The notes under the pieces: model-generated | What the model saw: only the letters and a program-made list of their open reading frames with translations | The model's database searches: none | Told to the model about the DNA's origin: nothing | Part shown: positions 3,680 through 49,574 of the stretch, piece by piece | How positions within the stretch are numbered: position 1 is the stretch's first letter | Layout: the number at the start of each line of letters is the position of its first letter | Made by a program: the position numbers and the translations under genes | NCBI GenBank assembly: GCA_000004695.1 | Contig: CM000151.3 | Coordinates: 2,176,001 to 2,240,000 of the forward strand | DNA: 64,000 nt | Direction of reading: 5' to 3' | Source of the DNA: Dictyostelium discoideum | Lineage: Eukaryota

Positions 3680-6600
3680 TTATTTACCACCAAATTTATT
3701 AAGAAGTATTTTATTGCTATGAATCTTTTTTCTTAACATGAATGCTGCAATTATTAAAGCACAACCAACAACAGGTACAGTGACAGCAACTGGAATTAAC
3801 CAAGGTTTTTTATTTTCTTTGCCACATGAATCTGATGACTTAAAATCTGAATTAATAATAACTGAAAAATCTAAAAATAAAAAAAATCAGTATAAAAAGT
3901 AAAAAAAAAAAAAAAAAAAAAAAAAGATAAAAATTTATAAATACCTGGATCTAATAAACATTGATTACAATGAGGCATATCAAGTGAAATTAAAACTTTT
4001 TTATCATCTTTTGAAATTATTTTAGTGATTGTTGTTGTTGGTCTACCATCTGATAACATTTTATCTTGGAATCTACCATAAAGTGTTTTACCATTTTTAC
4101 TAATTTTAAGATAATTAACATTTTGTAAATTATTACTATTTGGTGATGTTTCTACATTTGTATGTTCACTATCTATACAATTATTAATTTTACCTTCAGT
4201 AGTTGAAATATCAGATGACATTTGGATTTGTAAAGTGTTTAGATTACTTTTATAATTCCAATTTGAAACTGATAATGAAAGTTTAAAACCATCTTTACTA
4301 ACTGTGAATTGATTACCTGCAAATGTAAATTCTTTACCATTGTTACTTTCAATATTTTCAATTGTCATTATAATGGTTGCATTATTAACAATTTGAGAAA
4401 ATGTTGAAATTAAAGAACCTGAACCAGTTAGGTTATTTGTAGTATTTGTAATTTTCCAACCACTTTTAAGATTGATTAAAGAGTTTGGTACTTGATTATT
4501 ATTTAAATCAATTTCAGCAATTGAATCAATATAAATTAAATATACAGTATCTTCATTTATAATGGTAGTTGTGCCGTCGGGATTTACCTTTGTTTCAGTT
4601 GGTGGTTTTGATTCACCAACATCCTTTGTTAAACAATCAAGACCAATGAAACCAGAATTACATTTACATTCACCATTTGAATTACAATTACCATTACCAC
4701 TACAATTATTTAAACAATTAATAGTTGATTCTGAATATGGATAAATTGAACCAGACCATGTAATATTATTTTGAATGATTTCAATATTCTTTAAACCAAC
4801 ACCTGGTGGGATTGAAATAACTATTGTTTCATTATCAATTGAGTTTATTGGTATTATTTCATTATCAAATGAAAATTGGAAATATTTATGAACATCACCG
4901 AAAAAACCTGATATTGAAATGTTACCACCAGAAGTGGATGGTACCTTACTTGATGACGATACATAATGATATGGAATTGTACAAATTTCATTGTCTAAGC
5001 TTGTCCATTTATTATTACATGTACATTGTTTAGTAGTTTCATTACAATATCCATTTTCAGGTTGAAGGTATGGATTAATTAAACCGGACCATGTTATACC
5101 ATTTTGGGTTACTTCAGTTTTTACAAAACCGAATCCTTTACCAATTTGAGCATAGATTGTATTTGAATTAATTGAATCTATAAGGGAGCTAACACCATTA
5201 AAGGAAACAGAAATACCCAAATGAATATCACCAAACCAACCATATAATTTGATTGCACCACCAGATTCGACTGGAACTTTGGTTGAGTTTGTTACATTAT
5301 GAATTGGGATTAAACAATCCTCACTAGTCCATTCTTTAAAACATGCACAAACACCCATATGATCATTACAAATTCCATTTGAATTACAAGTTGGATTTTT
5401 ACATGGAACAGGAGTATGAATTAAATTAAAGTAGGTTGTTGTACTTTTATCTTCAACCATAACTGTAAATGATTTATTACCATAGTCAACAATTGGATAA
5501 TTAATATCACAAATTATTTTATAGAATGTAGTTGATTTAACAATACAATCATTATTACCGATCTTAACATTTACAACTGATTTATCATAAGAATAATATT
5601 GACCAGTGATTTCAAATGTTGCATTATTTTGAATGATCGTATCGATTTGTGGTGCATTACCTGCGATTGAAACTGTGAAATTAATTCCTGGTATTAAAAA
5701 TCTAATTTGAATAATATCATATTGATTACTAGCAACACTAAAATATCCTGAAAAACTATCATTTAAATTATTTGAACTAAATTTAATTTCAGGATATGTT
5801 ACAATATTATCTAAATTTGTTCCAATATTTTTTCCAATTAATGTAACTCGTGTTGATGATAAATTTAAAAATTTATAAACATTTATTTGACCTTTTTTTT
5901 TTTTTTTTTTTTTTTTAAAAAATATAAAAATAAAAATTAGTTATTTTTTAAAAATTATATAAAATTAGTTAATTATTATTCTATTCAAACTTACCATCAT
6001 TACAAGTTGAAGTTAAATTATAATTTGAAAAATTATTACCAACTAATCTTCTTTGATATGTTGGATCTTGTAAATAACAATAATAGCAATCTGGTAAAGA
6101 TCCTGATAATAAATTATTTGAAACATCTAAACTAATTGAACACCATGATTCATCGATACTACCAGTTAGTTTGTTATTACTTAAAGTAGCAGTTTGAGTG
6201 AATGCTGATTTTTGTAATGTATCTTTTACAGATGGAAGATTACCACCAATTTCAGAATTTGATAATGAAAATTGTTGGGCTCTTTGAAAAATTGATAGAT
6301 CTGGTAATGTTGAAAAGTTTCCATTTTCAACTATAAAGTTACTACATGTACCTGTTGGTAATTTTGAAAATGGGAAATTACCATTAATATTGAATTTTTT
6401 ACCAGCATTTTTTAAAGAAAATGAAACAAGTGTTTGATTACTATTTGATAAATCAATATAATCAGCTGGTGGACCCCAATTTCCTTGTGTAAAATATCTA
6501 CATTTATTATTATAATTATTATTTTTATTATTATTATTCAAGATAACTTTTTGAAAAAAAAAAAAAATTAAATTAAATAAAAAACTTACATAGTACCCCA

Positions 6601-46633: not shown

Positions 46634-49574
46634 TTAATCTTGTATTGATTCAGGTGGTATTGGTTCATTTAATCTTTTTTGAATTTGTTTTCTTTTTTTA
46701 TATTTTTTAATATAAATTATAACTAAAACAAGTATAGCAATTAAAAAGAAAAGACAAGGTATTAAAATTGCAGGTATTAACCATTTTTCAACATGAGAAT
46801 TATTGTTTTGATCGGAAGTACCACCACCACCACTATTATTATTATCACTTCTAAATTGATATTTATCGGGAATTGAATATTTAAATACATCAGCATCACC
46901 AGACTGACCATTAACATTAATTTGAATTTGATGATCAGATCTTTCTATTGAAGATTTATTTAATGATTCAGATAATGGTGGTAAATAACAAGTTAATGAG
47001 TTTGAATCAGTGATATTAACATAGATACATTGTTGAAGATTTGCAATTGTAATATTTATTGGTTTTGCCAATTGTGATCCGAAAATTGTAATTAAACCAC
47101 CAGTTGTTGGTGAAACTGATGTTGAATTTATAATTGTTGGTGACATATAAGAGAAGGTTAAACCCTTTGGGTTACCTTGAACCAAAATATCATTAATTAA
47201 AATTGAAACTGAATAATCACCACCTGATCCAGGTGGCATTTTACAAGTTATTGATGTAAAATGTTTTAAATCTAATTGTTGAATATCTTTACAAATTTGT
47301 GACCCAATTTTAATATTTAAATGATTGCCATTGTTGTTGTTGTTGATAATTTCATTTTCATTTACAAAATTATAATTTAATAAATTTAAATATTTACCAA
47401 TTATTGTAACAACACCACCATTAACTGATAATTTTGAAGGTATTGAAGTTATGAATGGTATAATTGGTAATTGAAGTTGGTTTGATTTTTGACCACCAAC
47501 TTCAATGAAAATCATTGAAGTTTTTATAGAATCCGGTATTTGAAATTGAATTAATTCACTTGAATTTGTTAATACTGGTAGTGGTGTAACAATGATTTTA
47601 CCATTGATTTCATTGTTAATATAAATGAAAACTTTTGAATTTAATTCACCCAAATTATTACCATTAACAATTGCATTATCAAAAGATTGATAAATTTTTG
47701 AAATGGTTGGGGCTTGATAAGTGAAATTTGTGAAAATGGCAGGTTTGGAATCACCAATTTCAAGTTTAAACCATAACTTTTTACCAATACCTGGTGAGAC
47801 TTTACAATAAATAATTTCACCAGGATATGATGAATCCTCAATTGGATCATGACAATTTAATTGATTATTATTATTAAAATTTTCAATTGAAAACTTTGAT
47901 TTCAATGGTTTACCATTTTCACTTGATAAATATAACCCATTACCTTTAATTGTAATTAAACCACCTTTAGTAGTTGGTGAACTAATTTCTTTAATTGATA
48001 CATTTATTCTAATCGGTATTGAAGAGTTATCGTTACTACCATCAATTGATACTGTTAATATACCAGGTCTTGGTATTGGTGAAATGTAAAGTATTGTACT
48101 ATTAACTATAGTTATAACCGATTGATTTAATTTAATACCATCTAAATAAACTGACATATCATTATTCATAAAATATTTACCAATAACTTTTAATTTACCT
48201 TGTTGTTCAATTGATGTTGTTGATAGTAATGTTGGTGGACCACAATCGAATATTGTTGAAGAAGGAGGTTGTCCAATTGGTATTGAAATACTAGTTGGTG
48301 GTGTTGTTGCACCATTTGAATTTTTATCCCAAAATTTAAATGCTCTACCACCACTTGTATATTGATAATATAATGGTGAATTCATTTGAAATTCAATATG
48401 GTTGATTGAGCTTGACAATTTTTGACCATATTGTGAAATTGGTGTTAGTTGTGAATAGGTTGTACTATCTAAAAAGTAACCATTGAATTTATAAGTACGA
48501 TTAGATGTTGGGCCCTCAATTGAATTTATAGTGATTGGTGGATAACCTTCCTTCAATTGACCTTGACCACAATAATTATCTAAACATAATGTATACTTAA
48601 AATCTCTTGTAGGACAAAGTCCAACAAGTCTATTAAAATCAGTTATAATCAAATTTGTGCTATTGACATAGTCAATTGAGATTTTATATGGAAATGGGTA
48701 ACAACTTGGCATGAATGTTAATAGTTTTCTATTTGTGCCAAAATTTATGCCAATAAACTCAATTTTAGTAGCACCTTTCTCAATATCCATTGATAACACT
48801 CTTGCAGAATTTATTATTGGTTTTGGGTAAGTTGCTTTGTATGGTGTTTGCTGTGAATTTTGATGATCACCACCAAAACTGATTAAAACATACCCAAAGC
48901 CAGGATCCATTGTCCAAGTTAATAAACCTGGTTGATTATAGATTAAACTATTTTCATATTTTAAATTTCTAATTTCTTTAGGTTTACCTGTGATATCTGT
49001 AATTGTCATTGGGGTGCTATTGGCGTTTGAGCCATCATAATATCGAATCTTCAATGAAGAAGTTCCATTAGTATATAAATGTGAATCATCGATTTCAACA
49101 GGAAATGAAATTGGTATCGATATCTTTTCATCAAGAACTCTGTTGGTTATTTTATACAATAGTGTTCCTTTACATTCTTGTTTTTGAAAATCGGTATATC
49201 CTGTGAAATCAAATGTTGAATTACAACTATTACTACCATCCAAATTCTTTATAATACGATTTGATCCAAATCCTTGAATCGCTCCATTATATGTACATTC
49301 TAAATTAACCAAACATAATAAATCAATATTTATTAAATCATTTGAATTTGGTAATATTGTTATAAATACTATTGATTTTAAATAATTAATTTTACTTTCA
49401 ATTTCACCTAAAATAGAATAAAAATTAATAAATAAATAAATAAAAAAATATTAATACTATATAAATATATATTTTTTTTAAAAAAATTAAGTAATTTAAA
49501 AATTATTTACAATTTATACTATATATAAATAATGAAATCAAAAATAATAATTTTAATACTATAAATGATTTCAT
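46634..49574 (-). CDS. Receptor E: signal peptide, multiple IPT/TIG-like Ig-fold repeats, TM and short tail. Two exons: 49511..49574, 46634..49368; about 932 aa
   Basis: Exon 1 encodes MKSFIVLKLLFLISLFIYSIN followed by t and a GTAAAT donor. The acceptor AG at 49369-49370 (caatag) is the only one compatible with the 892-aa ORF frame; the ttttag at 49407-49412 is out of frame. The body has repeated modules ending in G-rich strands (..LSVNGGVVTIIGKYLN.., TKGGLITIKGNGL.., TTGGLITIFGSQL..). The TM is WLIPAILIPCLFFLIAILVLVIIYIKKYKKRKQ with a short cytoplasmic tail. Confidence 0.7.

Follow-up and report, generated by a model that had tools for sequence, protein, structure and literature searches.

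The window analysed in this study is a stretch of 64,000 nucleotides (nt) of chromosome 2 of Dictyostelium discoideum AX4 (contig CM000151.3, positions 2,176,001 to 2,240,000 of the forward strand), which is AT-rich with a GC content of about 22%. Five loci for cell-surface proteins, designated A, pseudo-B, C, D and E, were found in it at the positions proposed for them in an initial annotation made from the sequence alone. The group begins at position 3680, the stop codon of A, and ends at 49574, the ATG of E. Public annotation already covers the genes and their families. The initial annotation had taken the five loci for a single recognition cluster comparable to tgrB1 and tgrC1. According to the results described below, the group probably consists of three independent loci, belonging to two unrelated families of type I surface glycoproteins and subject to ordinary birth-and-death, and does not behave as a hypervariable allorecognition locus.

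Genes of the cluster

The loci and their exons are as follows.

3680..7684, minus strand: gene A, ComC-family type I membrane protein of 1137 amino acids (aa), XP_644971.2 / Q558U5
7684-7600, 7505-7376, 7291-7016, 6871-6590, 6497-5995, 5891-3945, 3870-3680, minus strand: exons of A, all introns GT-AG
8460..10739, minus strand: main body of pseudo-B, a decayed tandem duplicate of A
12950..13377, minus strand: relic upstream exons of pseudo-B, homologous to exons 3 and 4 of A by tblastn
26089..30935, plus strand: gene C, ComC family, 1470 aa; in AX4 annotated as the first half of the fused model DDB_G0273015
26089-26155, 26290-26607, 26731-27057, 27149-30649, 30736-30935, plus strand: exons of C, the AX2 protein mapping exactly onto the window
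31279..35697, plus strand: gene D, 1387 aa, tandem paralog of C; in AX4 annotated as the second half of the same fused model
31279-31336, 31417-31710, 31805-32125, 32207-35697, plus strand: exons of D, exact map of the AX2 protein
46634..49574, minus strand: gene E, about 945 aa, identical to XP_644983.1
49574-49511, 49407-46634, minus strand: exons of E, exact exon map

Translation of the exon maps of A, C, D and E gives exactly the annotated proteins. All four of these intact genes start with a signal-peptide mini-exon of 58-85 nt that ends in phase 1, and each encodes one C-terminal transmembrane segment (TM), a basic tail of 17-25 aa and 17-33 N-glycosylation sequons. The mini-exon with its phase-1 donor, the single TM and the short basic tail had all been predicted initially and were borne out in the four genes.

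Two unrelated families

Domains were assigned with Pfam, for which the TIG cutoff is 20.9 bits and the gathering cutoff of ComC_SSD (PF22933) is 24 bits. ComC_SSD scored above its cutoff in A, B, C and D and gave no match in E, which hence lies outside the ComC family. By BLASTP, A and C share about 29% identity, only over the C-terminal cassette of EGF, TIG, EGF, SSD and TM, and for A and D identity is 26% and confined to the SSD; nothing significant was obtained for E against A, C and D (E value of at least 0.27). The proposal of five paralogs with one architecture was therefore not upheld: the architecture described initially holds for A-D, but E has no EGF domain, no ComC_SSD and no BLASTP similarity to the other intact genes. 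Because E is unrelated, and because the likeness between A and C is limited to the weakly similar C-terminal cassette, A/B, C/D and E are regarded as three independent loci. The cassette of C is in fact 44% identical to ACTFIY_009560, a ComC-family gene elsewhere in the genome, against about 29% to A.

LRR_ComC and Beta-sand_ComC_2nd are intact in A only and are absent from C and D, so that the latter two form a divergent ComC subfamily. The exchange of N-terminal domains noted initially could be specified by Pfam as LRR_ComC in A and a set of DUF7743, DUF7035 and DUF7034 in C and D.

The modules of A-D that end in the motif GxFGD had been described as IPT/TIG-like Ig folds. Their Pfam TIG scores are marginal (15.7-21.4 bits, against the cutoff of 20.9), and the AlphaFold2 model of the EGF-module-EGF segment of A reached a predicted local distance difference test (pLDDT) score of 84. 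The 16 best matches of the modelled A module in the PDB (E value of 1e-3 or lower) were all IPT/TIG domains, from EBF1/3, CAMTA1, plexin A and MET. The marginal scores and this fold match, which is to IPT/TIG domains only, agree with the initial description of these modules. With the hidden Markov models (HMMs) that had been suggested initially, EGF was matched in A-D (as EGF_2, EGF_Teneurin or DUF7949) and LRR_ComC in A, with no EGF in E, and IPT/TIG was matched clearly in E (61 bits) and at or below the cutoff in A-D, though the fold there is IPT/TIG-like.

Gene A and its decayed tandem copy

A hand-built model of A with seven exons matched XP_644971.2, annotated as 'EGF-like domain-containing protein', exactly. 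The protein has, in order, a signal peptide, LRR_ComC, Beta-sand_ComC_2nd, EGF, a TIG-like module, EGF, a second TIG-like module, EGF, ComC_SSD, TM and a basic tail of 17 aa. Pfam scores were 161 bits for ComC_SSD, 128 for LRR_ComC (PF24141) and 35 for Beta-sand_ComC_2nd (PF24143), and EGF_2 and EGF_Teneurin were matched as well. The EGF-TIG module is duplicated inside A, which has one such module more than B.

The main body of pseudo-B spans the end of the LRR region, one EGF-TIG-EGF module, a ComC_SSD of 100.8 bits (Pfam) and the TM exon. When A was aligned by tblastn onto 10739-8460, the reading frames ran -3/-1/-2/-1/-3, so that at least four frame changes are present, and an in-frame stop lies within the segment 10425-10126. 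The lesions are not AX4 sequencing errors, because the independently assembled AX2 genome shows the identical frame pattern. A sequencing error was also considered for the frameshift near 8825 and was rejected, as AX2 has the same frame pattern and pseudo-B carries further lesions. With frame changes found by tblastn in AX4 and AX2 alike, the initial view of B as a decayed, frameshifted tandem copy of A was confirmed.

Further upstream, aa 82-133 and aa 212-258 of A match 13377-13234 and 13091-12950 by tblastn, in three different frames. Pseudo-B retains LRR remnants that are frameshifted, and between these relic exons and its main body lie about 2.2 kb of AT-rich sequence. The displaced exon relics listed in the initial annotation thus exist, but not as a separate element; they are the upstream exons of pseudo-B itself.

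A and pseudo-B are 74% identical at the protein level and 84.6% / 67.9% at the nucleotide level. In a sliding window, nucleotide identity was 94-100% over positions 4380-3980 of A, against 60-78% in the 5' part, which marks a tract of gene conversion:

3980..4380, minus strand: A side of the A/B gene-conversion tract, C-terminal half of the SSD
roughly 8700-9100, minus strand: B side of the tract, counterpart of A 3980-4380

This conversion tract is recent. The single-base indel near 8825 that frameshifts B sits inside a stretch in which A and B are 100% identical.

The tandem pair C and D

The protein encoded by C contains DUF7743, DUF7035, DUF7034, a TIG-like module, EGF, a second TIG-like module, EGF, ComC_SSD (298 bits) and TM. 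D has the same N-terminal set of DUF7743, DUF7035 and DUF7034, followed by one TIG-like module, a PT-repeat linker, one EGF (DUF7949), a diverged ComC_SSD (66 bits) and TM, so that C has one EGF-TIG module more than D. The two proteins share 40-46% identity over the N-terminal 800-1088 aa and 25% over the SSD. Orthologs of C are found at the same position in four of the syntenic loci retrieved from other genomes (L001-L004).

In the AX4 annotation C and D are merged into one model (DDB_G0273015 / XP_644976.1, 2785 aa), whereas the annotations of AX2-214 and of the wild isolates give two genes. The fused model joins the inside of the last exon of C to the second exon of D, bypassing the stop codon of C and the signal-peptide exon of D. 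Since C ends in a TM, a tail and a stop codon of its own and D begins with a separate signal-peptide exon, the fusion is an annotation artefact and the AX4 reference model DDB_G0273015 should be split.

All introns of C and D are in phase 1, and so are the signal-exon donors of A and E. This is the arrangement that would be expected if the modules had been assembled by exon shuffling.

C and D also share a conversion tract, detected as a drop in pS, the proportion of synonymous differences:

28112..28389 in C and 33182-33459 in D, plus strand: C/D gene-conversion tract, about 280 nt

Within the tract pS between the two genes is 0.00-0.09, against about 0.5-0.6 (saturated) elsewhere, and nucleotide identity is 92.8%. 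Constraint alone was rejected as the cause of this identity, as synonymous sites are nearly identical there and saturated elsewhere. When the tract sequences of all isolates were compared, C grouped with C and D with D; because the tracts group by gene across isolates, the conversion is old and shared, predates the split of the isolates and is not ongoing.

D is intact in AX4, AX2 and the isolates ACTFIW and ACTFIZ, and is disrupted in ACTFIR:

L002 15082-19358 (ACTFIR, GCA_054859385.1): disrupted D, equivalent to 31279-35697 of the window

The automatic annotation of ACTFIR masks the broken gene as two genes, of 1047 and 228 aa.

Gene E

E has a signal peptide, TIG domains (Pfam, 61 bits, in two to three stretches), one TM and a short tail, and no EGF or ComC_SSD. 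Its orthologs are 98%, 98%, 97% and 95% identical in four genomes of the discoideum clade, 90% in D. citrinum, 87% in D. firmibasis and 55% in D. purpureum. In an exhaustive HMMER search with E the D. purpureum ortholog ranked first, followed by IPT/TIG membrane proteins of 770-860 aa and about 30% identity from Polysphondylium, Tieghemostelium, Heterostelium and Acytostelium. An AlphaFold2 model of E, built on an alignment of five sequences, had a pLDDT of 41 and was discarded, so no fold search was made with it.

E is a single-copy gene, syntenic in the genomes examined, under strong purifying selection and kept as far as D. purpureum. Its product name is the one that dictyBase uses for tgr genes, and it fits the operational Tiger definition, a transmembrane protein with IPT/TIG and E-set repeats. 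Literature searches by gene, by UniProt and RefSeq identifiers and by the tgrN1 and tgrM1 identifiers mapped no tgr name to E.

Synteny and divergence among isolates

The assemblies used for comparison were those of AX2-214, the tropical D. discoideum isolates CR116C and OT3A, and the possible cryptic species M4B and S6B (Holland et al. 2025, PMC12745789). Syntenic loci (L001-L007) were taken from four of the assemblies of Holland et al., under the isolate labels ACTFIR, ACTFIW and ACTFIZ together with AX2. With AX4, the synteny set thus comprised AX2, two diverged D. discoideum isolates and one cryptic species. Nonsynonymous and synonymous divergence (dN and dS) from AX4 were calculated by the Nei-Gojobori method for C, D, E and flanking genes, the A/B pair being left out of this comparison.

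As had been noted initially, the surface-protein genes are interleaved with unrelated ones, namely those for a lipase, the GCN2-type kinase (presumably ifkA), a papain-family protease, cdk1, an Alg2-like transferase (alg2), EMG1 and a C2-domain protein. The order ifkA, C, D, protease, orf405, cdk1, alg2, EMG1, C2-domain gene, E and inosine-uridine nucleoside hydrolase is kept one-to-one wherever the retrieved loci reach. ACTFIR and ACTFIZ together cover the whole order, the ACTFIW locus ends at orf405 and that of AX2 at cdk1. Among the retrieved isolate loci, from ifkA to beyond E, no structural instability was seen, the sole variation being the pseudogenisation of D in ACTFIR.

In the two D. 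discoideum isolates the background dS relative to AX4 amounts to about 0.05-0.16, and in ACTFIZ to about 0.08-0.32. The values of C (0.056-0.065), D (0.10-0.12) and E (0.10) in the two isolates fall inside the range of the flanking genes. With dS at background, C, D and E give no signal of balancing selection and no excess of old alleles. In E the ratio dN/dS amounts to 0.07-0.14, in D to 0.20-0.32 and in C to 0.42-0.47. Among other genes, ifkA has a ratio of 0.14-0.16 in the two D. discoideum isolates and of 0.31 in ACTFIZ, the unrelated orf405 one of 0.30-0.32 and an unrelated open reading frame (ORF) at 55 kb one of 0.44-0.45. For C, identity falls from 94.5% in the two isolates to 65% in D. 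firmibasis.

The genes were also scanned by segment for the proportion of nonsynonymous differences (pN). The fastest regions of D have pN/pS of 0.35-0.58, and the core of DUF7743 and DUF7035 and the EGF/SSD cassette 0.12-0.39. In no region of the genes scanned was pN significantly above pS. A search for raised nonsynonymous polymorphism had been suggested initially; dN/dS stays below 0.5 for C, D and E as whole genes, and two segments of C come near 1, all of this among four diverged genomes. As far as those genomes show, diversity at the locus is ordinary and low, a result that had been named initially as counting against the proposal.

Neighbouring genes and other elements

The remaining features of the window are listed here.

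18537-25313, plus strand: GCN2-type eIF2-alpha kinase, presumably ifkA, 2258 aa, with protein kinase, HisRS-like and anticodon-binding domains
38393-39610, minus strand: orf405, Asn-rich, 405 aa, no Pfam match
37071-37613, minus strand, and 53610-54185, plus strand: papain-family cysteine proteases (Inhibitor_I29 and Peptidase_C1)
56918-58567, minus strand: protein with PBD and WH2 domains (WASP-like), unrelated to the cluster
60569-61975, plus strand: isocitrate lyase, unrelated to the cluster
63128-63991, minus strand: TANGO2-like protein, unrelated to the cluster
12197-12403, plus strand: Dicty_CAD ORF, 68 aa, Pfam E value 3.4e-21, profile positions 30-82 of 82

The ifkA candidate contains very long tracts of Asn, Ser and Thr and is 2354-2445 aa long in the isolate annotations. 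The length of orf405 also varies across isolates (405, 406, 466 and 505 aa), and this gene evolves as fast as the unrelated D. The two papain-family proteases, which show about 56% protein identity in cross-matches, flank the block from cdk1 to E. A conserved neighbour of A/B is Rlp24, with an ORF of 102 aa.

Dicty_CAD is the cell-cell adhesion domain of DdCAD-1-type proteins. The ORF matching it lies between the body of pseudo-B and the relic exons, on the opposite strand, and has a possible upstream exon at 11983-12043; the same sequence occurs in AX2, where no gene is called. An intact two-exon Dicty_CAD gene was ruled out, as no GT-AG combination from the upstream ATG works. From its sequence the ORF looks like a fragment or pseudogene of the cad family.

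Origin and possible role of the genes

The explanation that we consider likely is that of three independent loci and two unrelated families given at the outset. Each of the ComC pairs, A/B and C/D, would have arisen by local tandem duplication. In C and D the set of DUF7743, DUF7035 and DUF7034 stands ahead of the same cassette of EGF, TIG, SSD and TM. Both pairs would then have undergone birth-and-death, with the loss of B in AX4 and AX2 and of D in one isolate, the gain or loss of modules, and short conversion tracts. For the ComC pairs the birth-and-death process proposed initially is well documented by pseudogene B, the broken D of ACTFIR, the A/B and C/D conversion tracts and the duplicated module in A.

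With their large glycosylated ectodomains the proteins would contact partners in the matrix or on other cells, and the short, non-catalytic basic tails would signal via associated proteins. By analogy with ComC and Tgr proteins, the most likely role of A, C, D and E would be to mediate adhesion or to bind ligands at the cell surface. In C and D the ligand-binding surfaces would most naturally be sought in the N-terminal parts, which evolve faster. ComC takes part in cell-cell communication at aggregation. A comC mutant shows aberrant aggregation (PMC2873529).

Several observations weigh against this explanation. The divergence sample consists of four diverged genomes and is not a population, so that a higher polymorphism within populations is formally compatible with it. 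The protein cluster at 90% identity that contains A holds AX4 and AX2 only, whereas those of C, D and E include tropical isolates; elsewhere A may be much more divergent (by more than 10%), absent, broken or annotated differently. The disruption of D in ACTFIR results from deletions of 77, 2, 1 and 5 bp, all outside long homopolymers, and a D that is dispensable in one isolate shows real variation of the repertoire. Finally, aa 1-210 and 511-700 of C (ORF numbering) have pN/pS of 0.6-1.8, indistinguishable from 1, which is compatible with relaxed constraint and also with some diversifying selection.

Weighing of other explanations

That the cluster is a kin-recognition locus of the TgrB1/TgrC1 type, its turnover driven by diversifying or balancing selection, is very unlikely. 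Such a locus could account for surface receptors with IPT/TIG-like and EGF modules, for the pseudogene B and the pseudogenised D of one isolate, for gene conversion, for the two segments of C with pN/pS near 1, and for the lack of an A ortholog of at least 90% identity clustered from tropical isolates. The genes tgrB1 and tgrC1, however, form a head-to-head ligand/receptor pair that shares a promoter (bioRxiv 10.1101/2025.10.22.684067), occupy a hotspot of structural instability and rank among the most polymorphic genes of the genome (median diversity 0.0014; bioRxiv 10.1101/2025.10.22.684067; PMC12745789). No head-to-head ligand/receptor pair with a shared promoter is found here: A/B and C/D each run head-to-tail on one strand, and E adjoins the C2-domain gene and the inosine-uridine nucleoside hydrolase gene. 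Moreover, A-D are ComC-family and not Tgr proteins, E is not related to them, every genome examined shows one-to-one synteny, dS is at background with dN/dS below 0.5 for C, D and E, and E combines ratios of 0.07-0.14 with an ortholog in D. purpureum. Genome-wide scans published for these same genomes point to the tgrBC locus and not to the present one (PMC12745789). The initial interpretation as one paralogous and polymorphic recognition cluster is therefore not supported. Somewhat less remote, yet still improbable, is the idea that A/B and C/D constitute a second fast-turnover repertoire of surface receptors beside the Tgr system, perhaps for kin, other species or prey. The signs that would speak for it are near-neutral or adaptive N-terminal domains, strain-specific pseudogenes and conversion between paralogs; if it were true, the missing A ortholog in the tropical clusters would reflect real hyperdivergence or presence/absence polymorphism.

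Better placed than these, though unlikely in its turn, is an explanation in which C and D, and perhaps A as well, face the environment as receptors, for example of prey bacteria, matrix or other species, are individually dispensable and have N-termini that would evolve fast by relaxed or episodic positive selection, and in which E is a conserved protein of developmental adhesion or signalling. The N-terminal 210 aa of C and D, and aa 511-700 of C, evolve 2-4 times faster at nonsynonymous sites than the EGF/SSD cassette, the D. firmibasis ortholog is only 65% identical for C against 87% for E, and D has been lost in one isolate. Against it stand the lack of any segment with pN significantly above pS and the similar dN/dS (0.30-0.45) of the unrelated orf405 and 55-kb ORF. 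Pure chance, by which three loci for surface proteins without shared biology would have come to lie within 46 kb, was given very little probability. It agrees with the unrelatedness of E to A-D and with the closer likeness of the C cassette to ACTFIY_009560 than to A. The genome has 55 IPT/TIG and 33 EGF-like proteins, 5 with both, or about 83 genes in 34 Mb (PMC4931340), from which three such loci within 46 kb would be expected by chance, as a rough estimate, about 0.5 times per genome. Chance is, however, the null form of the preferred explanation of three independent loci and does not conflict with it; on present evidence it cannot be separated from weak functional clustering.

With the preferred explanation little changes for the genes themselves, which are annotated members of known Dictyostelium surface-protein families. 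By-products of the analysis are a strain-specific pseudogene, D, and clear conversion tracts in A/B and C/D. E could be used as a slow-evolving contrast to tgrB1 and tgrC1 for studying the diversification of recognition genes.

Comparison with known systems

The predicted fold of the inter-EGF module of A matches the IPT domains of plexins and MET, and the EGF modules match teneurin-type EGF models. This likeness is one of individual domain folds only, as no sema, kinase or GAP domain occurs here and the tails measure 17-25 aa.

With TgrB1 and TgrC1 the present proteins share the type I surface topology, the IPT/TIG folds and the organism. The cluster differs from the tgrB1/tgrC1 locus in being syntenically stable, in its background level of divergence and in having no head-to-head pair. 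The annotated tgr genes number 63. Clear orthologs in D. purpureum are reported only for tgrM and tgrN, and the slow tgr genes likely serve functions other than that of TgrB1/C1 (PMC12745789). A-D are not Tgr proteins. E resembles the slow tgrN/tgrM members of the Tgr family (PMC12745789) in its signal peptide, IPT/TIG repeats, single TM and short tail, and, like those two subfamilies, is single copy and syntenic with an ortholog in D. purpureum; it is unpaired in the head-to-head sense and not hypervariable (dN/dS 0.07-0.14).

The closest relationship of A-D is to the ComC family, although none of them is comC itself and none has a reported phenotype. C and D differ from this family in that DUF7743, DUF7035 and DUF7034 replace the LRR and second beta-sandwich domains, and the SSD of D has diverged, scoring 66 bits where that of C scores 298. 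In A all the ComC-specific Pfam domains follow one another in order, together with the EGF repeats and TM, B is a decayed copy of A, and C and D carry the family's cassette of EGF, TIG-like module, ComC_SSD and TM.

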